Source: a virus (Duplodnaviria > Heunggongvirae > Uroviricota > Caudoviricetes). From it: a stretch of 16,129 nucleotides of DNA. Every line of letters starts with the position of its first letter. Positions within the stretch are counted from its first letter, which is position 1. The stretch lies in the IMG/VR virus record IMGVR_UViG_2563367001_000002. The stretch is one strand, 5' to 3'. The position numbers were made by a program, and so were the translations under genes. Below are positions 4,315 to 15,426 of the stretch, piece after piece. Under the pieces are notes generated by a model that searched no databases, had not been told where the DNA came from, and worked only from the letters and a program-made list of their open reading frames with translations.

Positions 4315-7300
4315 ATGGGTAAAGGCAGCAGTAAGGGGCATACCCCGCGCGAAGCGAAGGACAACCTGAAATCATCCCAGATGCTGAGCGTGATAGACGC
4401 CATCAGTGAAGGGCCGATTGAAGGTCCGGTGGACGGATTAAAAAGTGTGCTGCTGAACAGTACGCCAGTGCTGGACAGTGAGGGGAATACCAATATCTCC
4501 GGTGTCACGGTGGTTTTCCGGGCAGGTGAGCAGGAGCAGACACCGCCGGAGGGATTTGAATCCTCCGGCTCCGAGACGGTGCTGGGTACGGAAGTGAAGT
4601 ACGACACGCCGATTACCCGGACCATCACGTCTGCAAACATCGACCGTCTGCGCTTTACCTTCGGTGTGCAGGCACTGGTGGAAACCACCTCAAAGGGGGA
4701 CAGGAATCCATCGGAAGTCCGCCTGCTGGTTCAGATACAACGTAACGGTGGCTGGGTGACGGAAAAAGACATCACCATTAAGGGTAAAACCACCTCGCAG
4801 TATCTGGCCTCAGTGGTGGTGGATAACCTGCCGCCGCGCCCGTTTAATATCCGGATGCGCAGGATGACGCCGGACAGCACCACAGACCAGCTGCAGAACA
4901 AAACGCTCTGGTCGTCATACACCGAAATCATCGATGTGAAACAGTGCTACCCGAACACGGCACTGGTCGGCGTGCAGGTGGACTCGGAGCAGTTCGGCAG
5001 CCAGCAGGTGAGCCGTAATTATCATCTGCGCGGGCGTATTCTGCAGGTGCCGTCGAACTATAACCCGCAGACGCGGCAATACAGCGGTATCTGGGACGGG
5101 ACGTTTAAACCGGCATACAGCAACAACATGGCCTGGTGTCTGTGGGATATGCTGACCCATCCGCGCTACGGCATGGGGAAGCGTCTCGGTGCGGCGGATG
5201 TGGACAAATGGGCGCTGTATGTCATCGGCCAGAATTGCGACCAGTCGGTGCCGGATGGCTTTGGTGGCACGGAGCCGCGCATCACCTGTAATGCCTGGCT
5301 GACCACGCAGCGCAAGGCGTGGGATGTGCTCAGTGATTTCTGCTCGGCGATGCGCTGTATGCCGGTATGGAACGGGCAGACGCTGACGTTCGTGCAGGAC
5401 CGGCCATCGGATAAGGTGTGGACCTATAACCGTAGTAATGTGGTGATGCCGGATGATGGCGCGCCGTTCCGCTACAGCTTCAGCGCCCTGAAGGACCGTC
5501 ATAATGCCGTTGAGGTGAACTGGATTGACCCGAATAACGGCTGGGAGACGGCGACAGAGCTTGTGGAGGACACGCAGGCCATTGCCCGTTACGGTCGTAA
5601 CGTCACGAAGATGGATGCCTTTGGCTGTACCAGCCGGGGGCAGGCACACCGCGCCGGGCTGTGGCTGATTAAAACAGAACTGCTGGAAACGCAGACCGTG
5701 GATTTCAGCGTCGGCGCAGAAGGGCTTCGCCATGTACCGGGTGATGTTATTGAAATCTGCGATGATGACTATGCGGGGATCAGCATTGGCGGGCGCGTGC
5801 TGGCGGTGAACAGCCAGACCCGGACGCTGACGCTCGACCGTGAAATCACGCTGCCATCCTCCGGTACCACGCTGATAAGCCTGGTTGACGGGCAGGGGAG
5901 TCCGGTCAGCGTGGAGGTTCAGTCCGTCACCGACGGCGTGAAGGTGAAAGTGAGTCGGGTTCCTGACGGCGTTGCCGGATACAGCGTGTGGGGGCTGAAG
6001 CTGCCGACGCTGCGCCAGCGCCTGTTCCGCTGTGTGAGTATCCGTGAGAACGACGACGGCACGTATGCCATCACCGCCGTGCAGCATGTACCGGAAAAAG
6101 AGGCCATCGTGGATAACGGGGCGTACTTTGACGGCGACCAGAGCGGCACGGTGAATGGTGTCACGCCGCCAGCGGTGCAGCACCTGACCGCCGAAGTCAC
6201 CGCAGACAGCGGGGAATATCAGGTGCTGGCGCGCTGGGACACGCCGAAGGTGGTGAAGGGCGTGAGCTTCCTGCTCCGTCTGACCGTAACAGCGGATGAC
6301 GGCAGTGAGCGGCTGGTCAGCACGGCCCGGACGACGGAAACCACATACCGCTTCAGGCAACTGGCGCTGGGGAACTACAGGCTGACAGTCCGGGCGGTAA
6401 ATGCGTGGGGGCAGCAGGGCGATCCGGCGTCGGTATCGTTCCGGATTGCCGCACCGGCAGCACCGTCGAGGATTGAGCTGACGCCGGGCTATTTTCAGAT
6501 AACCGCCACGCCGCATCTTGCCGTTTATGACCCGACGGTACAGTTTGAGTTCTGGTTCTCGGAAAAGCGGATTACCGATATCAGGCAGGTTGAAACCACA
6601 GCCCGCTATCTTGGTACGGCGCTGTACTGGATAGCCGCCAGTATCAATATCAAACCGGGCCATGATTATTACTTTTATATCCGCAGTGTGAACACCGTTG
6701 GCAAATCGGCATTCGTGGAGGCCGTCGGTCGGGCGAGCGATGATGCGGAAGGTTACCTGGATTTTTTCAAAGGCAAGATAACCGAATCCCATCTCGGCAA
6801 GGAGCTGCTGGAAAAAGTCGAGCTGACGGAGGATAACGCCAGCAGACTGGAGGAGTTTTCGAAAGAGTGGAAGGACGCCAACGATAAGTGGAATGCCATG
6901 TGGGGCGTCAAAATTGAGCAGACCAAAGACGGCAAACATTATGTCGCGGGGCTTGGCCTCAGCATGGAGGACACGGAGGAAGGCAAACTGAGCCAGTTCC
7001 TGGTTGCCGCTAACCGTATCGCATTTATTGACCCGGCAAACGGGAATGAAACGCCGATGTTTGTGGCGCAGGGCAATCAGATATTCATGAACGAAGTGTT
7101 CCTGAAATATCTGACGGCTCCCACCATTACCAGCGGCGGTAATCCTCCGGCATTTTCCCTGACACCGGACGGGCGGCTGACGGCGAAAAATGCCGATATC
7201 AGCGGTAACGTGAATGCGAACTCCGGGACGCTCAACAACGTCACGATTAACGAGAACTGCCGGGTTCTGGGAAAACTGTCCGCGAACCAGATTGAAGGCG

Positions 7301-7710
7301 ATCTCGTTAAAACAGTGGGCAAAGCTTTCCCCCGTGACTCCCGAGCACCGGAGCGGTGGCCATCAGGGACCATTACCGTCAGGGTTTATGACGATCAGCC
7401 GTTTGACCGGCAAATTGTTATTCCGGCGGTGGCATTCAGTGGCGCTAAGCATGAGAGAGAGCATACTGATATTTACTCCTCATGCCGTCTGATAGTGCGG
7501 AAAAACGGTGCTGAAATTTATAACCGTACCGCGCTGGATAATACGCTGATTTACAGTGGCGTTATTGATATGCCTGCCGGTCACGGTCACATGACACTGG
7601 AGTTTTCGGTGTCAGCATGGCTGGTAAATGGCTGGTATCCCACAGCAAGTATCAGCGATTTGCTGGTTGTTGTGATGAAGAAAGCCACTGCAGGCATCAC
7701 GATTAGCTGA
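4315..7710 (+). CDS. J: Host specificity protein J (tail tip / central fibre, lambda gpJ-like), 1131 aa
   Basis: 1131-aa ORF (lambda J is 1132 aa) beginning [20 protein letters not shown]... Long collinear similarity to lambda J as I recall it. The last ~150 aa differ from lambda (receptor-binding region). SD-like GGAG upstream. Confidence 0.92.
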
Positions 7711-7777: not shown

Positions 7778-8377
7778 ATGCGTAAATTATGTGCTGTTAT
7801 TCTGTCCGCAGTAGTCTGGCTGGTTGCCGCTGGTACGCCAGCGAGCGCAGCAGAGCATCAGTCCACACTAAGCGCCGGGTATCTTCAGACCCATACTGAT
7901 ATGCCAGGCAGTGATGACCTGAAGGGCATTAACGTGAAATACCGTTATGAATTTACGGACACGCTGGGGCTGGTGACGTCATTCAGTTATGCCAATGCCA
8001 AAGATGAGCAAAGAACGCATTACAGCGATACCCGCTGGCATGAAGATTCAGTGCGTAACCGCTGGTTCAGCATGATGGCGGGGCCATCTGTACGCGTGAA
8101 TGAATGGTTCAGTGCTTATGCGATGGCAGGTGTGGCTTACAGCCGTGTTTCGACGTTCTCCGGGGATTATCTCCGCGTAACTGACAACAAGGGGAAAACG
8201 CACGATGTGCTGACCGGAAGTGATGACGATCGCCACAGCAACACGTCTCTGGCGTGGGGAGCTGGCGTGCAGTTTAACCCGACCGAATCCGTGGCCATTG
8301 ATATTGCTTATGAAGGCTCCGGCAGTGGCGACTGGCGCACTGACGGTTTCATCGTGGGTGTCGGTTATAAGTTCTGA
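7778..8377 (+). CDS. lom: Lom outer membrane protein (Ail/Lom/PagC family beta-barrel), 199 aa
   Basis: Signal peptide (MRKLCAVILSAVVWLVAAGTPASA), alternating aromatic beta-strand pattern, C-terminal ...GVGYKF. Position right after J as in lambda. Own SD (GAGAGG) and flanking terminators. Confidence 0.9.
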   Translation: MRKLCAVILSAVVWLVAAGTPASAAEHQSTLSAGYLQTHTDMPGSDDLKGINVKYRYEFTDTLGLVTSFSYANAKDEQRTHYSDTRWHEDSVRNRWFSMMAGPSVRVNEWFSAYAMAGVAYSRVSTFSGDYLRVTDNKGKTHDVLTGSDDDRHSNTSLAWGAGVQFNPTESVAIDIAYEGSGSGDWRTDGFIVGVGYKF

Positions 8378-8431: not shown

Positions 8432-8441
8432 TGGAGTGGAT

Positions 8442-10820
8442 ATGGCAGCAGTAAAAATCTCAGGTGTGCTGAAAGATGGTGCGGGAAAACCAATACAGAA
8501 CTGCACTATTCAACTGAAGGCAAAGCGTAACAGCACCACGGTACTGGTGAACACGGTGGCTTCTGAAAATCCGGATGAAGCCGGACGTTACAGCATGGAT
8601 GTTGAGTATGGCCAGTACAGCGTCACCCTGCTGGTTGAAGGTTTTCCGCCTTCACATGCCGGGACCATTACCGTCTATGAAGGCTCCAGACCAGGTACGC
8701 TGAATGATTTTCTCGGTGCCATGACGGAAGATGATGTCATGCCGGAGGCATTGCGTCGTTTTGAGGAAATGGTGGAAGAAGCGGCACGCAACGCTGAAGC
8801 CGCCTCTCAGAGCGCAGCGGCGGCAAAGAAATCCGAAACTGCAGCGGCATCATCGAAGAACGCGGCGAAAACCTCAGAAACGAATGCAGCTAATAGTGCA
8901 CAGGCGGCAGCGACCTCAAAGACTGCATCGGCAAACTCCGCGACAGCAGCCAAAAAATCAGAAACCAACGCGAAAAATAGCGAGACAGCCGCAAAGACGA
9001 GCGAAACCAACGCAAAGTCCAGCCAGACGGCAGCGAAAACCAGCGAAACGAATGCCAAAGCCAGTGAAACTGCGGCAAAAAACAGCCAGGTTGCAGCAGC
9101 CCAAATCGAGAGCGCGGCAGCCGGTTCTGCGACTTCAGCAGCTGGATCAGCAACTGCTGCGGCTAACAGCCAGAAAGCTGCGAAGACGAGTGAAACTAAC
9201 GCAAAGTTCAGCCAGACGGCAGCGAAGACCAGCGAAACGAATGCCAAAGCCAGCGAAACTGCGGCGAAAAACAGTCAGGATGCAGCAGCCCAAAGCGAGA
9301 GTGCTGCAGCTGGTTCTGCAAGCGCGGCGGCTGCTTCTGCCACTGCATCAGCCAACAGTCAAAAAGCAGCAAAAACCAGTGAAACCAATGCAAAGACAAG
9401 CGAGACTGCAGCGGCGAACTCGGCGAAAGCATCGGCAGCAAGCCAGACAGCAGCTAAAGCAAGTGAAGACGCAGCCAGAGAGTATGCAAGTCAGGCAGCA
9501 GAGCCGTATAAATATGTCTTACAGCCGCTGCCTGATGTGTGGATACCATTTAACGATTCGCTGGATATGATTACGGGCTTTTCGCCATCATATAAAAAAA
9601 TTGTTATTGGTGACGATGAAATAACGATGCCTGGCGACAAGATTGTTAAGTTTAAACGTGCATCGAAAGCAACCTATATTAACAAATCTGGTGTGCTGAC
9701 AGAGGCTGCCATTGACGAGCCACGATTTGAACGTGATGGCCTGCTTATTGAGGGGCAAAGAACAAACTACATGCTCAATTCGGAAAGCCCTGCAAGTTGG
9801 GGGCGATCATCAAATATGGATGTGCCCGAAACAGGGACGGATAATTTTGGTTTTACCTATGGAAAGTTTGTCTGCAACGATTCTCTGATTGGGCAAACCT
9901 CAGCCATTAATATGGCATCAATTGCTGCAACAAAGTCAGTTGATGTCTCAGGCGATAATAAACACGTGACAACCTCATGTCGTTTTAAAACAGAACTGCA
10001 GGTAAGGTTGCGTATCCGGTTTGATAAATATGACGGTAGCACAACAACTTTTCTTGGTGATGCGTATATTGATACACAAACGCTTGAAATTAATATGACA
10101 GGCGGTGCTGCCTCAAGAATTACAGCGAGAGTCAGAAAGGACGAAGCTACCGGATGGATTTTTGCAGAGGCAACAATTCAGGCAATTGATGGGGAGTTAA
10201 AAATAGGCTCTCAGATACAGTATTCTCCTGGGCAGGGTGGGGCAACAGTATCTGGTGACTATATTTATCTTGCCACCCCACAAGTAGAGAATGGGCCGTG
10301 TGTATCATCATTTATTATTTCAGGAGGCAGCGCAACGACAAGAGCCAGTGATTTGGTTAGTATCCCCACCAGAAATAATCTTTATAAGTTACCATTTACT
10401 TTTTTACTTGAGATTCATAAAAACTGGGATATTGCACCAAACGCCGCACCCCGCGTGTGGGATATAGCAGCAGCCAATACCGGGCAATCAGCAATTGCAG
10501 CAATCAACAGAGGTAGTGGTAAGTTATATATGAGTCTGTCAAACCCTTCAGGCTCGTATGTTAATAGCGCAGCGACAGATGTATTTGCAGAGAAAACCAC
10601 ATTTGGATGTATTGCAAAAGCTGATGGTCACTTTCATGTGGTGACAAATGGTAAAGCGGTTAATGAAGTTTATTGTGAATATAATGGCGTGACCGCTGAT
10701 AAAAATATCCGATTTGGAGGGCAGACGAATACTGGAGAACGACATCTGTTTGGCCATATTCGCAATTTCCGCATATGGCATAAAGAATTAAATGACAGGC
10801 AATTAAAAGAGGTCGTATGA
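8442..10820 (+). CDS. stf: Side tail fibre protein (Stf-like N-terminus, Ala/Ser/Thr-rich repeat shaft, LamG/ConA-like C-terminal domain)
   Basis: N-terminus MAVKISGVLKDGAGKPIQNCTIQLKAKRNSTT... matches the lambda Stf N-terminus as I recall it. I chose the ATG at 8442 with GGAG 5-8 nt upstream; the ORF track's 8436 is a GTG two codons earlier. The central part has KTSETNAK-type repeats. The C-terminus ends ...IRFGGQTNTGERHLFGHIRNFRIWHKELNDRQLKEVV, the typical end of a LamG (concanavalin-like lectin) domain. Confidence 0.8.
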   Translation: MAAVKISGVLKDGAGKPIQNCTIQLKAKRNSTTVLVNTVASENPDEAGRYSMDVEYGQYSVTLLVEGFPPSHAGTITVYEGSRPGTLNDFLGAMTEDDVMPEALRRFEEMVEEAARNAEAASQSAAAAKKSETAAASSKNAAKTSETNAANSAQAAATSKTASANSATAAKKSETNAKNSETAAKTSETNAKSSQTAAKTSETNAKASETAAKNSQVAAAQIESAAAGSATSAAGSATAAANSQKAAKTSETNAKFSQTAAKTSETNAKASETAAKNSQDAAAQSESAAAGSASAAAASATASANSQKAAKTSETNAKTSETAAANSAKASAASQTAAKASEDAAREYASQAAEPYKYVLQPLPDVWIPFNDSLDMITGFSPSYKKIVIGDDEITMPGDKIVKFKRASKATYINKSGVLTEAAIDEPRFERDGLLIEGQRTNYMLNSESPASWGRSSNMDVPETGTDNFGFTYGKFVCNDSLIGQTSAINMASIAATKSVDVSGDNKHVTTSCRFKTELQVRLRIRFDKYDGSTTTFLGDAYIDTQTLEINMTGGAASRITARVRKDEATGWIFAEATIQAIDGELKIGSQIQYSPGQGGATVSGDYIYLATPQVENGPCVSSFIISGGSATTRASDLVSIPTRNNLYKLPFTFLLEIHKNWDIAPNAAPRVWDIAAANTGQSAIAAINRGSGKLYMSLSNPSGSYVNSAATDVFAEKTTFGCIAKADGHFHVVTNGKAVNEVYCEYNGVTADKNIRFGGQTNTGERHLFGHIRNFRIWHKELNDRQLKEVV
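8991..9413 (+). repeat. In-frame 189-bp (63-aa) tandem repeat inside stf, about 2.2 copies, roughly 90% identical
   Basis: Unit A 8991-9179 (gcaaagacgagcgaaaccaacgcaaag...) recurs as unit B 9180-9368 (gcgaagacgagtgaaactaacgcaaag...), with a partial third copy to about 9413. Protein-level repeat ...AKTSETNAK(S/F)SQTAAKTSETNAKASETAAKNSQ...ANSQKA. Confidence 0.85.
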
Positions 10821-11095
10821 AAGATTTAACTTTGAAGTTTCATGACAAACTGCAGTTTAAGGCCTTCCTGTCATCTCTTGGCTGGGCGGAAGATGAAGAC
10901 CTCCAGAATAAACTGTTAGTTGATGAAATTGGTTTCACCTACACAGAAACAGGGGTAACAGAAGAGGGAGAACCTGTCTGTATCCGGAATGATGGTTATT
11001 TTGTCAACATTCGCATTCTTGATGACTTGTTTGATGTTTCTGTATTCTCTGATTATGTCGTGGAGCTGGAAACACCGCTTCGGGAATGGAGCTGA
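10817..11095 (+). CDS. Hypothetical acidic protein, 92 aa, translationally coupled to stf
   Basis: ATG overlaps the stf stop (ATGA, 10817-10820). Good SD (AAGAGG) 6 nt upstream. No TM segment, net acidic. I recognise no family. About 41% GC. Confidence 0.55.
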   Translation: MKDLTLKFHDKLQFKAFLSSLGWAEDEDLQNKLLVDEIGFTYTETGVTEEGEPVCIRNDGYFVNIRILDDLFDVSVFSDYVVELETPLREWS

Positions 11096-11107
11096 AAGGA
11101 GGAAATA

Positions 11108-11401
11108 ATGGATATAAGCCCCTTACTTCATGCACTTTGTGCTGTGGCTGCGCAGATACTGGTTGGTCTTTTTACCGGAAACTGGGCTTACGGAGCGATA
11201 GCCGGTTGTACGTTCTTCATTGCGCGTGAACATACCCAGGCAGAATATCGCTGGATTGAAATGTTCGGGCATGGCAAGCGAATGAATATGCCGTGGTGGG
11301 GCGGTTTTGATCCGCGAGCTTGGGATGTGGCAAGCCTGATGGATTTTGCTGTGCCGGTGGTGGCGTGTCTGCTGGTCTGGCTGTTGGTTAATCGTGGGTG
11401 A
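11108..11401 (+). CDS. Hypothetical small membrane protein, 97 aa, two predicted TM helices
   Basis: Strong SD (AAGGAGG) 5-6 nt before the ATG. Hydrophobic stretches LLHALCAVAAQILVGLFTGNWAYGAIAGCTFFI and FAVPVVACLLVWLLV. Family not recognised. Confidence 0.55.
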   Translation: MDISPLLHALCAVAAQILVGLFTGNWAYGAIAGCTFFIAREHTQAEYRWIEMFGHGKRMNMPWWGGFDPRAWDVASLMDFAVPVVACLLVWLLVNRG

Positions 11402-11411
11402 AAAAAGGTGA

Positions 11412-11541
11412 GCTGTATATGCAACGGAGGAAGAAACCCCGTTGCTGGAAGCCAGGAAAAAGTATCGGGTGTTGCTGAACCGTGTTGATACATCAACTGC
11501 ACCTGATATTGAGTGGCCTACGAACCCTGTCAGGGAGTAAT
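11412..11541 (+). pseudogene. tfa: Tail fibre assembly protein (Tfa) C-terminal remnant, about 42 codons (tfaD-like)
   Basis: Frame translates ...[39 protein letters not shown], matching the conserved Tfa C-terminal motif (...[26 protein letters not shown]). No N-terminal part; an in-frame stop lies immediately upstream (11409-11411). Confidence 0.7.
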
Positions 11542-11554
11542 CATTGGGATTATG

Positions 11555-11604
11555 CCGCAGCACGTCTTAAGCAAGAACGTGCTGCGGTTGGATGCTATTT
11601 TTTC
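11555..11604. terminator. Hairpin between the convergent Tfa remnant and methyltransferase gene (candidate bidirectional terminator)
   Basis: Perfect 11-bp stem CCGCAGCACGT / ACGTGCTGCGG (11555-11565 and 11577-11587) with an 11-nt loop; a T-run (TATTTTTT) lies 9 nt downstream on the + strand. No U-tract on the minus-strand side. Confidence 0.45.
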
Positions 11605-12263
11605 CCTGAAGCGGAAAACATTACTACAGTACCTTGAACCTTGGTTTTAACATTCTCGAAATGCTCTGAGAGTATATGTGTTAAGCCTTCTTCGGAATCT
11701 TTTGTGTTTGAAAAGATGCCTTTCTGATTGTAAATGCGCATCAGTTTTTGACCGAAGCTATTGTGCACAACGCCGTCACCAAGAATTGTGGCTCCGTATA
11801 GAGTTCCATCGTCAGTTAAGGCCTGCGCCGCATTGCGTATTACACAGCTTTTTGTAGATATATTTCCAGGCAGGCAGTGAAGAAGGTAAAACATGGAAAT
11901 GGAATCAAATTGACCATGTAACGCCGCGGGATAAGGATCAAAAACATCATGGCTAATTTTATGTTTAATTTTTGATTCCCCAGCCCTTGTAGATGCCGCG
12001 TTCAGGCTAGCTTCGTTCAAATCCATTAAAGATATCAGACTACTCTCAGGTACGTGAGTAAGGTAAAACCCAGTTCCAACACCAATATCCAGATGGTTGT
12101 TACCTAAATGTTCCAGAAAGTGTGGAAGAAGGTGTTCCTTTGTAGGACATCCCCATGCAAGCCGATTTGATACTCCCAAAACCCACCAGTCATAAAGCTT
12201 TAGGGTAAGTGGTGTGTAAATTTTAGCCCCATCATCTGTGTTTTTTTTCATTAATTTCACCAT
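11595..12263 (-). CDS. ybcY: Class I SAM-dependent methyltransferase (ybcY-like), 222 aa
   Basis: Motif I LDIGVGTG (GxGxG), acidic residue in LMDLNE about 20 aa later, motif II-like FDSISMFYLLHCLP. Sits between two Tfa remnants exactly like ybcY in the K-12 DLP12 tfaD-ybcY-tfaX arrangement; the symbol is assigned from that context. A second in-frame ATG at codon 5 (CDS 11595..12251) has a better SD (GGTGA). Low GC. Confidence 0.7.
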   Translation of the reverse strand: MVKLMKKNTDDGAKIYTPLTLKLYDWWVLGVSNRLAWGCPTKEHLLPHFLEHLGNNHLDIGVGTGFYLTHVPESSLISLMDLNEASLNAASTRAGESKIKHKISHDVFDPYPAALHGQFDSISMFYLLHCLPGNISTKSCVIRNAAQALTDDGTLYGATILGDGVVHNSFGQKLMRIYNQKGIFSNTKDSEEGLTHILSEHFENVKTKVQGTVVMFSASGKK

Positions 12264-12319: not shown

Positions 12320-12618
12320 ATGCTGCCGCAGCATAGCGATATTGAAATAGCCTGGTATGCTTCGATACAGCAGGAGCCGAATGGCTGGAAGACCGTCACC
12401 ACACAGTTCTACATCCAGGAATTCAGTGAGTATATTGCGCCACTGCAGGATGCTGGGAAATCGCAACGGAGGAAGAAAGATCGTTGCTGGAGGCATGGAA
12501 TAAATATCGGGTATTGTTGAATCGTGTTGATACATCAGTAGCTCTGGGTATGAAGCTGTTTGTAACTCATGTTACAGTAACAACCATTACTATCTCGAAG
12601 GTGCAAAATGTATATTGA
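12320..12618 (+). pseudogene. tfa: Tail fibre assembly protein pseudogene (tfaX-like), frameshifted
   Basis: One frame gives ...[10 protein letters not shown] and, after a shift of frame near 12455, ...[30 protein letters not shown]... These are both parts of the conserved Tfa C-terminal domain, split across frames. The C-terminus diverges from the Tfa consensus after VDTS. Confidence 0.6.
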
Positions 12619-12801: not shown

Positions 12802-14286
12802 TTATTGTATTTCTGCTTCAGAATTTCCTGGGCAGTATATATTTTCTATTTTTTGTGGAGTGATCAGGTGATGTACAACTGCTTTATCTACACATAAATT
12901 AACTCCGGTGAGAGCTAATGTATGCCCATCACCATTTATTGTTAGTAACGGGCTGGAAAATTTCTCTGCCATCTTACGGGCATTAATCCAGGGCGTTGTT
13001 GGGTCGTATTTGTGTGCTACAAACAGTAAACCAGAGGGCAGAACAGTATTTTTCAGGCGAGTTTTGTTCAGGTCGCTATGTATTGGCCATAATTCACAAA
13101 AATCAGGTGAATCGGAACGTCCATTGTCAAAGTTAATGGCCGGGAAGGCATTCGCAAGAGCGTCTTTTCGGGATTTTCGCTCTTCTGGTGTTAATTGCTC
13201 ATCCCCCTGATCTACACAGAGGATTACCCCCGAAGCATCGCTTGACTCTTCTGAGGCTATCGGAGCACTGAGCGCAGTTTCAATTTCATTACTGACAATC
13301 CCCTGAGAGAACTGGCGTATGGCAGTTGCAAGGGTTGGCCATGATGAACGCCATAGCAGAAGGTCTGTTGTTAATGATATGAGTTCATCTGAAGATATAT
13401 TTTCTCCCTTACTGTCTAATAAAGGTTTGTGATGTAATTTTGATAATAGCTCATGGAACTGAGTTATTGCCTTATCTCTGTCTGAAGAAAGCGGGCAACT
13501 TTTTGTACGCGCACACCAGGATGCAAAGCGATCAAACGTTTCCTGATAACTCTGTGCCTGTTTGAGTTGCCATGTGAAGTTGTCCTCCAGGTCATCGATA
13601 TCGACGACTCCATCAAGAACGATAGATCTTACGTTGTAGGGAAAACGTTCTGCATATAAGGCTGCAATTTGAGTTCCATACGAATACGCCACGGCTGTCA
13701 GTTGTTTATCCCCCAAGGCTTGCCTAATACGATCAATATCGTATACAGCCTCGTTAGAGCCGATATGGCGAATGACTTCGGCTCCGGTATTATGGATACA
13801 GGCATTAATTTTATTTAATACTTGTTGCTTTTCGGTTATGTTTTCCTGAGTCTCTGTATCTGATTGCCGGCAGTTTATTGTCGGAGTGGACTGTCCGACG
13901 CCTCGAGGATCAAATCCAATAATATCCCATGACTCACGAAGATTTGTGACTGGCCAGTCAAAGTTAATATAAGGATTTATGCCTGGTAACCCGGGACCAC
14001 CACTTATTATCAGGATACTTCCTTTATGCTTGCTTTTTGCCGGCAATTTTGTCAACGCTAGTTTGACTTGTGATTTTTTTTCATAAGAAGCATCTCCGCC
14101 TGTGTCTGTATATTTTAATGGAACAGACAAATAACCACATAGTAAGTCAGGAGACGGTTTTTCCTCACCAAACCAGTGGTTGAATTGACTGGCCATACAG
14201 GATTGCCACTGTATCTGCTGGGCAGATACGGTTACTGGTAGAAGTAACGTTAAAACAACTTTGAAATGAGTAATTATTTTTCGCAT
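12802..14286 (-). CDS. Signal-peptide-bearing (exported) alpha/beta-hydrolase peptidase, S33 / TAP-like (tripeptidyl or prolyl aminopeptidase family), 494 aa
   Basis: N-terminal signal peptide (MRKIITHFKVVLTLLLPVTVSA|QQ). GGPG oxyanion motif (ILIISGGPGLPG), GFDPRGVGQS, nucleophile elbow AYSYGT (GxSYG-type), C-terminal Asp/His region (INGDGHTLAL). Low GC. Confidence 0.75.
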   Translation of the reverse strand: MRKIITHFKVVLTLLLPVTVSAQQIQWQSCMASQFNHWFGEEKPSPDLLCGYLSVPLKYTDTGGDASYEKKSQVKLALTKLPAKSKHKGSILIISGGPGLPGINPYINFDWPVTNLRESWDIIGFDPRGVGQSTPTINCRQSDTETQENITEKQQVLNKINACIHNTGAEVIRHIGSNEAVYDIDRIRQALGDKQLTAVAYSYGTQIAALYAERFPYNVRSIVLDGVVDIDDLEDNFTWQLKQAQSYQETFDRFASWCARTKSCPLSSDRDKAITQFHELLSKLHHKPLLDSKGENISSDELISLTTDLLLWRSSWPTLATAIRQFSQGIVSNEIETALSAPIASEESSDASGVILCVDQGDEQLTPEERKSRKDALANAFPAINFDNGRSDSPDFCELWPIHSDLNKTRLKNTVLPSGLLFVAHKYDPTTPWINARKMAEKFSSPLLTINGDGHTLALTGVNLCVDKAVVHHLITPQKIENIYCPGNSEAEIQ

Positions 14287-14472: not shown

Positions 14473-15426
14473 TTAAAAGGTGTACTTAAGACCAGCAGTA
14501 GTGATGAAGTTATAGTTTTCTATGCCTGCACCATTTTTGCTGTAGTCTGAAGTGTTATCATTGTGATCATAAAGTGAAGTATTACCTTTTTTATTCGTAA
14601 CCCGATTCCATGCGCCTTCAACATAAACTTTTGCGTTAGGTGTTACGTAATAACCTGCATTGACTGCAACAGAATAGTAATTTTGGTCTTTGACTTTACT
14701 GCGATAAGTGATTCTTTTTCCTGGGTCATAGTGCTCATCGTTATCAGATGCTTCCACCCAGCCGCTGTATTTAAATGTGCCACCTAGCTCAAAATCTTCA
14801 TAACGATAACTTCCAGTCAAGCCAATGTAGGGCATTTTAAAACGTTGTTTGTAGCCGATTGCTCTTTCTCCATTCGGGAAGGAGCCGATATCATCTCTGA
14901 ATCCCTCCTCAGAACTGTAGATATAGGAACCACCTCTGGCTGTAAAGCTATAACGGCTTTCCTGATATCCGGCCATGAGTCCCAGGCGGTAATTGGGTTC
15001 GTTGAGGAGCCAGCCTTTGATATTCAGATCAAATTCGTTGGCATAATTGAGTTGTGTATCAGGGTGCCTACTTTCATCTGTCCAGGTTCCGGGGTTACTG
15101 GAATCCATCCAGTCCTGATCGACCATATTGCCACCTCGGCTGCCGAGAGTAGTCCAGCCCGCAGCCCCAATAGATATCTGGGGCATCAAATCCCAATTAA
15201 TTGCACCTTTAATAATTGCAGCGTTATTGAATTTCCAGTCAAGTTGACTGACTTTTCGGCCTCCTTCTTCGGCTAGATAAACACGCTCTTTTGTTTTTCC
15301 GCTCAGAGTTCCAAGACTAATGTCCGCATTTATGTTGTCAGGAGTAAACGATAAAGTCTCGGTAGAAGCAAAAGAGCTGATCGCAATAGGGGTTGTCAGG
15401 ACTATTCCCAGAAGTTTCGCCCGCAT
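14473..15426 (-). CDS. ompT: Outer membrane protease OmpT (omptin, peptidase family A26), 317 aa
   Basis: 317-aa ORF with signal peptide MRAKLLGIVLTTPIAISSFA and C-terminal ...TTAGLKYTF. Essentially collinear with E. coli K-12 OmpT as I recall it. GGAG SD 8 nt upstream of the ATG. Confidence 0.93.
   Translation of the reverse strand: MRAKLLGIVLTTPIAISSFASTETLSFTPDNINADISLGTLSGKTKERVYLAEEGGRKVSQLDWKFNNAAIIKGAINWDLMPQISIGAAGWTTLGSRGGNMVDQDWMDSSNPGTWTDESRHPDTQLNYANEFDLNIKGWLLNEPNYRLGLMAGYQESRYSFTARGGSYIYSSEEGFRDDIGSFPNGERAIGYKQRFKMPYIGLTGSYRYEDFELGGTFKYSGWVEASDNDEHYDPGKRITYRSKVKDQNYYSVAVNAGYYVTPNAKVYVEGAWNRVTNKKGNTSLYDHNDNTSDYSKNGAGIENYNFITTAGLKYTF

Follow-up and report, generated by a model that had tools for sequence, protein, structure and literature searches.

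A candidate chaperone or cap that tracks a lectin-headed side tail fibre tip, and an apparently unrelated, highly conserved membrane protein encoded behind it

What serves a side tail fibre when the gene for the usual assembly chaperone, tfa, survives behind it only as a fragment? The question is raised by a 16,129-nt stretch of DNA from a member of the Caudoviricetes (IMG/VR record IMGVR_UViG_2563367001_000002), called here the window, in which stf is followed by two small open reading frames, ORF92 and ORF97, and only then by a 42-codon remnant of tfa. All four elements, described in the original prediction, were confirmed by sequence and translation. The stf gene (8436..10820, plus strand; PF08400, E 7e-67; phrog_1419) encodes a side tail fibre of 794 aa, with an N-terminal phage_tail_N domain (PF08400), a shaft of Ala/Ser/Lys-rich repeats, a GTA_spike_fiber domain (NF048003, aa 437-637), and a Laminin_G_3 domain (PF13385, aa 668-789). 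The 424-aa C-terminal receptor-binding module (aa 371-794; 9546..10820, plus strand), termed StfC below, combines a GTA-spike-fibre domain with a LamG/lectin-like head. No Peptidase_S74 (PF13884) intramolecular chaperone was detected in Stf by a Pfam scan, and a sequence-profile search of PDB chains returned a solved relative for the N-terminal domain only.

The Tfa remnant (11412..11540, plus strand), identified by translation and PHROG comparison, is startless and comprises 42 sense codons (11412-11537) and a stop codon (11538-11540). It matches the C-terminal ends of Tfa PHROG profiles only and is non-functional; the RefSeq label at this site is ‘tail fiber assembly protein’. The 3' end of tfa is also the source of a 75-nt direct repeat, with its first copy at 11421..11495 (plus strand) and a second, 85% identical, at 12463-12537 (spacing 1042 nt), and the two copies flank a minus-strand methyltransferase cargo gene.

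ORF92 (10817..11095, plus strand) encodes a 92-aa protein. Direct reading of the sequence places a Shine-Dalgarno motif, AAGAGG (10807..10812, plus strand), within the stf 3' end, 4 nt ahead of the ORF92 ATG, which itself overlaps the TGA stop of stf (ATGA). The product contains 20 acidic and 8 basic residues (pI 4.17), lacks hydrophobic segments, and is predicted to adopt a soluble, acidic alpha/beta fold. It matches phrog_1361, a family without assigned function (E 3.2e-42, residues 1-91 on a 92-position profile). Searches of Pfam and NCBIfam gave no Tfa profile match, and the PHROG matches were limited to families of unknown function. Neither ORF92 nor ORF97 matched any Pfam, NCBIfam, PADLOC or PDB entry, the first three having also been scanned with distant homologues; the sole Pfam match from these scans was a sub-threshold one to PhoR (E 0.037). 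A Foldseek search of BFVD with the ORF92 model returned uncharacterised family members only. The original prediction could place neither protein in a known family, and these searches lead to the same result. No role is assigned to ORF92 in current annotation or in the papers cited here on these fibres.

Both reading frames are conserved in relatives. About 80 IMG/VR loci carry them intact, as do the plaque-forming phages 21, Perceval, 4A7, and ev017, at 97-100% identity. Median dN/dS values are 0.32 for ORF92, indicating purifying selection, and 0.12 for ORF97, and the frames remain open in relatives down to about 30% and 45% identity, respectively. Intact frames, low dN/dS and persistence at low identity together indicate that ORF92 and ORF97 are more than chance open reading frames.

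The distribution of ORF92 follows the fibre tip. In about 104 loci ORF92 always lies directly 3' of StfC and never occurs without it, and a local HMM found StfC right upstream of every ORF92 homologue. Among 70 genome loci retrieved through ORF97, ORF92-family frames were present in 9 of 9 with a StfC-type fibre vs 0 of 61 without one (Fisher's exact p = 1.5e-11); StfC is followed directly by ORF92 in 79 of 80 IMG/VR loci. In the phage collection, tblastn found StfC in 218 records, from lambdoid, T1-, T5-, and rV5-like phages, Dhillonvirus, and JenP-like phages. ORF92 is present in 191 records, and the counts per genus of the two agree closely. The linked loci span virulent T5-, T1-, and rV5-like phages, beta- and alphaproteobacterial prophages, and environmental viral contigs. 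The two genes abut or overlap in the T5-like JLBYU40 and IrisVonRoten, the T1-like Jahat, the rV5-like JeffSchatz, and an Aeromonas myophage. Distant loci were found with single distant proteins as queries; among ten environmental contigs carrying ORF92 relatives about 30% identical, nine have the StfC pair and the tenth is truncated on its upstream side.

The original prediction suggested that the acidic protein could be a chaperone or adaptor for the LamG domain. Comparative genomics strongly supports such a function, through the strict co-occurrence of ORF92 with the tip type, with the refinement that its partner is the whole 424-aa GTA-spike-fibre and LamG module, rather than LamG alone. 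Changes in the hypervariable LamG sequence are not mirrored in ORF92; in one related locus (L008) it is 99% identical while LamG has fallen to 31%. ORF92 is better conserved than the receptor-binding domains, which fits a chaperone and not an adhesin; an adhesin role was rejected for this reason.

Allelic variants of a single fibre gene bear on the same point. In the Vequintavirus group, an S74 ending and a StfC-plus-ORF92 ending are alternative alleles of one gene: rV5 gp41 has an S74-type chaperone ending and no ORF92, whereas the JeffSchatz allele has the StfC ending and is accompanied by ORF92. The same swap between S74 and lectin-head endings is reported with cryo-EM support (PMC12143355). 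Since the rV5 allele is of the S74 type and lacks ORF92, rV5 virion proteomics is uninformative on this protein. The absence of ORF92 from the allele with an intramolecular chaperone, and its linkage to StfC whatever the phage family or lifestyle, favour the chaperone idea.

On these genomic patterns, ORF92 most likely represents a new family of trans-acting assembly chaperones or caps. It would be made from stf mRNA through translational coupling, would bind a conserved part of the nascent fibre tip and help its folding or trimerisation, and might stay bound as a transient cap; strict gene linkage, the start-stop overlap, and purifying selection are observed, whereas binding to the fibre and a chaperone function are inferred. 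In this role ORF92 would replace both the lambda-type Tfa, dead here, and the S74 chaperone of alternative fibre alleles. As with the trans-acting chaperones Tfa of lambda, P2, and Mu (gpG, gpU), T4 gp38 and gp57A, and the ‘caps’ of Alteromonas phages V22 and A5 (PMC10579305), its gene is located right 3' of the fibre gene, its product is small and soluble, and it travels with the C-terminal fibre module in horizontal exchange and stands in for an intramolecular chaperone in allelic variants. It differs from Peptidase_S74 (PF13884), found in K1F endosialidase, T5 pb1, and DT57C LtfA/LtfB, which is covalently attached and auto-cleaved, in being a separate polypeptide with another predicted fold.

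Gene linkage fits a chaperone, a structural cap, or an adaptor alike, and the last of these deserves separate consideration. ORF92 might sit on the tip or side of Stf and dock a second distal fibre, giving a branched fibre of the DT57C or T-shaped type. Of 80 E. coli prophage loci, 38 have a second fibre gene directly 3' of ORF92, as do Jahat, JLBYU40, and IrisVonRoten; its product carries an S74 chaperone and shares the N-terminal consensus M[AV]T.TVIP.DI..LK. The sequence type of ORF92 tracks this arrangement, being at least 89% identical to that of the window where the second fibre is lacking and about 52% identical where it is present. The closest parallel is IrisVonRoten (Bas32), whose Gp22 and Gp23 are homologues of Stf (StfC 52% identical) and ORF92 (50% identical), respectively, their genes overlapping by 4 nt as in the window. 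The C-terminal domain of Gp22 was described as ‘galectin-like’, and Gp24 was modelled as attached to the proximal fibre Gp22, the gene for Gp23, annotated ‘tail fiber protein’, lying between them; the role of Gp23 was not discussed (PMC11990801). IrisVonRoten differs from the window in being virulent and T5-like, in having the T-shaped distal fibre Gp24 as a third gene, and in lacking ORF97 in its lateral tail fibre locus. Against docking, loci that lack a second fibre retain ORF92 as an intact frame under purifying selection; they include the window, phage 21, JeffSchatz, the Aeromonas myophage, Comamonas and Chelativorans prophages, and all 10 environmental contigs. The sole universal neighbour of ORF92 is StfC, and the adaptor is, on balance, unlikely. 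The DT57C LtfA/LtfB branched fibres were also considered as the same system and rejected, as both fibres have S74 domains and no small frame lies between their genes.

ORF97 (11108..11401, plus strand) begins 12 nt after the ORF92 stop, with a Shine-Dalgarno motif, AAGGAGG (11096..11102, plus strand), read directly from the sequence 5 nt ahead of its ATG. The two co-oriented genes are neighbours, only 12 nt apart, in the window and in 41 of 80 related loci, an arrangement that could suggest a two-gene system, such as a toxin-antitoxin pair or a soluble factor with a membrane anchor. However, each gene is abundant without the other. ORF97 is missing beside ORF92 in environmental contigs and in the examined fibre loci of T5-, T1-, and rV5-like phages, 61 of 70 genome loci have ORF97 but no ORF92, and in 38 of 80 loci the two are split by a second fibre gene. 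Their GC contents are 11 points apart, StfC and ORF92 sharing a low value (42.4% and 41.9%) that jumps to 52.7% at ORF97, and no toxin-antitoxin or defence family match was found for either in Pfam or PADLOC. A joint system is extremely unlikely and is effectively refuted by distribution; the toxin-antitoxin version was rejected, each gene being widespread without the other. The gene pair does not accompany LamG-type tips as a unit: ORF92 follows the tip, ORF97 does not, and the two genes are unrelated. We give roughly even chances to the overall proposal, in which ORF92 is a dedicated StfC partner or chaperone and ORF97 an independent accessory envelope factor, two unrelated modules co-transcribed with stf.

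The 97-aa product of ORF97 is a predicted inner-membrane protein matching phrog_1443, again without assigned function (E 2.4e-58, residues 1-96 on a 97-position profile). It was originally described as having two transmembrane segments; two strong hydrophobic segments (about residues 5-24 and 77-95) were indeed found, but there is a weaker one (26-39) and the AlphaFold model has three helices (pLDDT 93), so that the number may be three. A fold search gave nothing informative. PADLOC returned no match for ORF92, ORF97 or their distant homologues, and no known exclusion, defence or conversion protein similar to ORF97 was found.

ORF97 is widely distributed. It was found in 1903 of 5426 complete E. 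coli genomes (35%), often in several copies, and 577 homologues share its nearly invariant core, AREHTQAEYRWI…NMPWWGGFD, among Gamma-, Beta-, and Alphaproteobacteria and Desulfovibrio. These diverse homologues came from a search of genome contigs; an IMG/VR locus search with the ORF97 alignment yielded near-identical E. coli loci only. The copy of an E. coli phage is 57-65% identical to those of Aeromonas or Comamonas. Homologues more than 75% identical are confined to temperate phages, and distant or partial ones occur in a few large, probably virulent phages (Carin-5, AVP1, KFSST3). In lambda-, P22-, and P2-like temperate phages the gene lies behind unrelated receptor-binding proteins, and homologues follow an S74 fibre (P2-like Leclercia prophage), a pectate-lyase spike (Citrobacter), a gpJ-like protein (Comamonas), a tailspike and O-acetylase (a Lederbergvirus), and an Mtd-like protein upstream of bAvd. 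ORF97 is absent from T5- and T1-like loci bearing the same fibre cassette. Chromosomal copies in Aeromonas and sphingomonads, next to ligA, pnp or Pirin genes, have no phage context.

The original prediction suggested lysogenic conversion or superinfection exclusion, for example by masking the receptor of this LamG-type fibre. A role in lysogeny is plausible, given the restriction of close homologues to temperate phages and the moron architecture seen in Gally. For a receptor mask, ORF97 does adjoin the fibre gene, as the known receptor-blocking genes cor and llp adjoin receptor-binding protein genes (PMC8594841, PMC11990801). Yet identity remains at 95-100% in ORF97 where it falls to 17-40% in the neighbouring LamG and GTA-spike domains, and homologues 60-84% identical lie behind a P22-type tailspike, an S74 fibre, and a pectate-lyase spike in other host genera and classes. 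This near-invariance beside unrelated receptor-binding proteins, together with the chromosomal copies, speaks against the mask, which is very unlikely.

Another reading is a late lytic factor, either holin-like and concerned with lysis timing or guarding progeny from re-adsorption to the dying cell. In the window no promoter-like site was found upstream of ORF97 on the plus strand, nor was a terminator detected on that strand, and with the 12-nt gap this means that ORF97 is expected to be expressed late with stf, in close translational packing with the stf-ORF92 transcript. Such timing suits a role in the lytic cycle no less than lysogenic conversion. The gene directly precedes genes for membrane, endolysin-like (GH108), and spanin-like proteins in Comamonas and Pantoea-labelled prophages, and with about 100 aa and three helices it resembles class I holins. 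Holins typically end in a charged tail, however, whereas ORF97 ends only in ‘NRG’; no endolysin gene lies near it in the window, adjacency to a lysis cassette being confined to some Comamonas-type prophages. Its long invariant loop is also atypical, as are its cellular homologues (45-60% identity). The lysis genes of lambdoid phages, including phage 21 (S21/R21), are located at another site. In Gally and 611R6, ORF97 is in the conversion locus beside int. In the P22-like Gally, the homologue forms its own terminator-bounded unit, parted from the late operon by a strong upstream terminator; the AT-rich region before it holds one promoter-like match (9/12), a frequency no higher than in shuffled sequence. 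A late lytic role is accordingly quite unlikely.

ORF97 is thus probably a lysogeny-associated envelope factor and not a mask for the receptor of this fibre. It is an independently mobile accessory gene, probably of the moron type, from a family that is also cellular, and temperate phages of three morphotypes carry it just behind receptor-binding protein genes. The product would most likely act on a conserved component of the host envelope or inner membrane, and would exclude phages or protect the lysogen or infected cell independently of the receptor, probably with no action on the fibre or its receptor. Like Cor, Llp, HK97 gp15, P22 SieA, T4 Imm, and the GtrA/Oac morons, ORF97 is a small (predicted) inner-membrane protein, and its placement, after receptor-binding genes or in a tailspike-int conversion locus with close homologues in temperate phages only, is moron-like. 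It differs from this group in having no above-threshold Pfam-A match, a comparison that covers the members modelled in Pfam, in being far more conserved than typical exclusion proteins, in having stable chromosomal homologues, and in its independence of receptor specificity. An LPS-directed role, hinted at by lipid A acyltransferase neighbours in Aeromonas, was rejected, being weakened by the chromosomal copies in sphingomonads, which are not known to have LPS.

A more specific version, itself unlikely, is offered only tentatively. ORF97 would represent an ancient Gram-negative membrane family with a polar core (H8, Q16, R40-E41-H42, E46, WWGGFD) that may be catalytic or ligand-binding, repeatedly captured by temperate sipho-, myo-, and podophages and placed directly behind receptor-binding genes. 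There it would block, whatever the receptor, a conserved step of phage entry or of progeny loss at the envelope or inner membrane.

Few receptor-binding modules of coliphages are exchanged as widely as tips with a GTA-spike and LamG lectin head; besides lambda-, T1-, T5-, and rV5-like phages and Dhillonvirus they are known in Queuovirinae, and their targets are probably glycans. If such tips need ORF92, the gene must be moved along with the tip in chimeric fibres or delivery particles, and its product should be included in structure predictions of these fibres. ORF97 is an unusually conserved and very common prophage gene with a consistent position after receptor-binding genes. Its target, once found, could reveal a general interaction between phages and the host envelope. 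If the tentative reading given above were true, ORF97 would amount to a general principle of exclusion carried by a third of E. coli genomes.

In the window lies the tail end of a lambdoid prophage, whose genes come in the order tape-measure C-terminus (3-1913), small tail genes, J (4315-7710), lom (7778-8377), stf (8436-10820). The stf stop overlaps the start of ORF92 (10817-11095) in an ATGA motif preceded by AAGAGG, and ORF97 (11108-11401), preceded by AAGGAGG, starts 12 nt past the ORF92 stop. Next comes a startless frame of 42 codons (11412-11540), the C-terminal end of a lambda-type tail fibre assembly protein (Tfa), and Tfa is dead in this window. This layout agrees in every described feature with the original prediction. 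The ORF92 product is acidic (pI 4.17) and has zero hydrophobic segments, and that of ORF97 has two strong segments and one weaker. A search of the + strand between 10300 and 12400 gave neither a sigma-70-like promoter nor an intrinsic terminator, and both ORFs are thus taken to belong to the stf transcript. The shaft of Stf is encoded by a long Ala/Ser/Thr/Lys-rich repeat (8800-9550) of the form ...KTSETNAK.S.TAA..., which gives rise to long spurious ORFs in other frames and on the complementary strand, such as 8731-9570 (+) and 8807-9247 (-).

ORF92 and ORF97 are genuine genes. The stf-ORF92-ORF97 block is 99-100% identical in the plaque-forming phages 21, Perceval, 4A7, ev017 and 1W/3W, so that both frames, whose loss in relatives would have spoken against a function, are kept intact. 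Most of the block occurs in about 1100 of 5426 complete E. coli genomes, and ORF97 taken alone in 1903 of them, with a median of two copies. Median pairwise dN/dS was 0.32 for ORF92 and 0.12 for ORF97. The products belong to phrog_1361 (ORF92) and phrog_1443 (ORF97), both families of unknown function, and zero matches to Pfam, NCBIfam or PADLOC were found for either. Fibre-specific chaperones and membrane-protein morons behind receptor-binding genes are known kinds of gene; these two families are unnamed, structurally unmatched and uncharacterised, and no paper assigning a role to either was found in the searchable library. What the analysis establishes is the gene linkage, the signals of coupling, the selection, the predicted folds and the distribution.

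The decisive evidence on ORF92 is its linkage to the last 424 residues of Stf, the receptor-binding module StfC, which comprises a GTA_spike_fiber domain (aa 437-637 of Stf) and a Laminin_G_3 head (aa 668-789). Of 70 genome loci collected by way of ORF97, exactly nine contain an ORF92-family ORF, and these nine are the ones with a StfC-type fibre; they come from Escherichia, Comamonas, a Pantoea-labelled assembly and Chelativorans. The other 61 have no such ORF (Fisher p = 1.5e-11). The proposed co-occurrence of the gene pair with LamG-type fibre tips thus holds for ORF92 (9/9 versus 0/61 loci) and fails for ORF97, which the 61 loci carry without a StfC-type fibre. StfC is directly followed by ORF92 in 79 of 80 IMG/VR loci, and in the GenBank phage collection 218 records match StfC and 191 match ORF92, with closely similar genus tallies. 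The pair is also found in strictly virulent phages, namely the T5-like JLBYU40 and IrisVonRoten, the T1-like Jahat and the rV5-like JeffSchatz, and in an Aeromonas myophage; in these phages the two genes invariably overlap or adjoin. ORF92 relatives of only about 30% identity were found on ten environmental viral contigs; the StfC-family ORF ends where ORF92 starts in nine, and the tenth is cut off upstream. In the StfC-family protein of two environmental contigs (L173 2175-4001 and L175 2217-4001), two tandem matches to the GTA-spike part of the profile precede the LamG head. The GC content of StfC and of ORF92 is about 42% each, and that of ORF97 52.7%.

Of 80 E. coli loci, 38 have a second, short fibre gene directly after ORF92, an arrangement shared with T1- and T5-like phages; examples are the comparison loci L085 (5918-6958), L087 (6286-6990), L055 (5307-5990), L155 (4792-5487), L154 (4789-6558) and L165 (8028-9752). 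The second gene encodes 227-589 aa with a conserved N-terminus, M[AV]T.TVIP.DI..LK, which resembles a docking motif, and the intramolecular chaperone domain Peptidase_S74 (S74) was confirmed by Pfam in both of the proteins tested (L085, L087). Its presence correlates with the ORF92 sequence type. In the model of IrisVonRoten published in the BASEL paper, Gp24 is a T-shaped distal fibre on the proximal fibre Gp22, whose C-terminal domain is described as 'galectin-like' (PMC11990801). Gp23, encoded between them and left undiscussed in that paper, is an ORF92 homologue of 50% identity. This arrangement, together with the downstream fibre gene, makes a structural adaptor or connector role for ORF92 possible, albeit unlikely. 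The second fibre is absent from the window, phage 21, JeffSchatz, the Aeromonas phage, the Comamonas and Chelativorans prophages and all the environmental contigs, and ORF92 is still kept there under purifying selection; the primary partner of ORF92 is thus StfC.

The fibre gene of Vequintavirus occurs in two forms, one ending in an S74 intramolecular chaperone without ORF92 (rV5 gp41) and the other with a StfC ending and an ORF92 homologue (JeffSchatz bas55_0026/0027). The same replacement of S74 by a lectin head is described with cryo-EM support in the RBPseg paper, the small gene being unmentioned (PMC12143355). A Pfam scan found no S74 domain in the Stf of the window. ORF92 varies less than the receptor-binding domains: locus L008 is 99% identical in ORF92, 31% in LamG and 37% in GTA-spike, and L045 is 97% identical in GTA-spike, 39% in LamG and 54% in ORF92. 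This lower variability makes an adhesin role unlikely and suggests that ORF92 recognises, in the manner of a chaperone, a conserved feature of the StfC module. We infer that ORF92 binds StfC and has chaperone activity; it is probably a trans-acting assembly chaperone of this module, possibly a transient cap.

ORF97 is not tied to the StfC-type fibre, as its contexts demonstrate. The Leclercia homologue directly adjoins the S74-type fibre of a P2/HP1-like prophage, that of Citrobacter comes after a pectate-lyase spike, and in Lederbergvirus 611R6 the homologue follows a tailspike, an O-acetylase and a fibre remnant, with int adjoining. These positions, together with non-phage chromosomal sites, speak against the proposal that ORF97 masks the receptor of this fibre, and fibre-specific masking is very improbable. 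In the Lederbergvirus Gally, a terminator with a 9-bp stem and a 190-nt AT-rich region separate the tailspike gene from the homologue, and int is next. The terminator, ACCACCTCC-ATT-GGAGGTGGT plus a T-run, is strong and intrinsic and ends the tailspike transcript; the AT-rich region has one promoter-like match, TTAAGA-18-TAGAAT, and shuffled sequence gives such matches at least as often (L167 4789-5001 for terminator and region together). The homologue of Comamonas nitrativorans and Pigmentiphaga is flanked by an Mtd-like variable protein (phrog_2889) on one side and bAvd on the other (L112 5785-7691, L114 5824-7691), apparently inside a diversity-generating retroelement cassette, the unit that diversifies a receptor-binding protein. 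Sphingobium and Halomonas prophages have tail fibre genes upstream of it, at a distance of two or three genes. In Comamonas testosteroni, a gene for a 2520-aa gpJ-like protein precedes the homologue, and membrane, endolysin-like and spanin-like genes follow. Of 75 phage records, those with a homologue of more than 75% identity are all of temperate types (lambdoid, P22-like and one 108-kb record), and a few large phages have only distant or partial matches. ORF97 is absent from the T5- and T1-like loci that share the fibre cassette of the window. Phage rV5 has another small membrane protein within its receptor-binding protein cluster, gp29 (88 aa, L166 6938-7204), wedged between the tail fibre genes gp30 and gp28; tblastn gave no match between it and ORF97.

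Chromosomal copies were distinguished from prophage copies by family scans of only about 30 neighbours, with genes in high-GC loci called by a simple ORF finder. In four alphaproteobacterial loci (L137, L147, L148, L149; position about 7000 in full-length loci), ligA, encoding the NAD-dependent DNA ligase, is directly upstream of the homologue on the same strand with no phage genes nearby, and this order is a stable chromosomal synteny. In another alphaproteobacterial locus, the adjoining gene is PNPase-like, as identified by eye. In Aeromonas, too, a homologue is found outside any phage context, with Pirin and lipid A acyltransferase genes beside it; in A. rivipollensis (L003 6473-9645) it adjoins two lipid A acyltransferase genes and a RIO1/Kdo-kinase-like gene. 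These neighbours would allow a link to LPS, to which the sphingomonad copies lend no support.

Downstream of ORF97, a class I SAM-dependent methyltransferase gene (11595-12263, - strand) is bracketed by a 75-nt direct repeat from the tfa 3' end (11421-11495 and 12463-12537; copies 85% identical), and appears to be cargo that entered between two tfa ends by insertion or recombination. Two tail fibre assembly genes are annotated at this site in some E. coli genomes. In phage 21, the record annotation places the sitABCD iron/manganese transporter operon directly after ORF97 on the opposite strand (L001 5794-9243), and with the methyltransferase of the window this marks the site as a cargo hot spot. 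The sequence to the right of the prophage end encodes a TAP-like alpha/beta hydrolase (494 aa, 12802-14286) and an omptin-family outer-membrane protease (317 aa, 14473-15426), both on the - strand.

The C-terminal K/R tails of its homologues suggest a C-in topology for ORF97 with a periplasmic loop. Tentatively, ORF97 may be an independently mobile accessory membrane protein, whose target would be a conserved component of the host envelope or inner membrane and which would give receptor-independent exclusion or protection. A late lytic or holin-like role of ORF97 is quite unlikely. ORF92 carries practical weight for fibre engineering, and ORF97 is a very common prophage gene.
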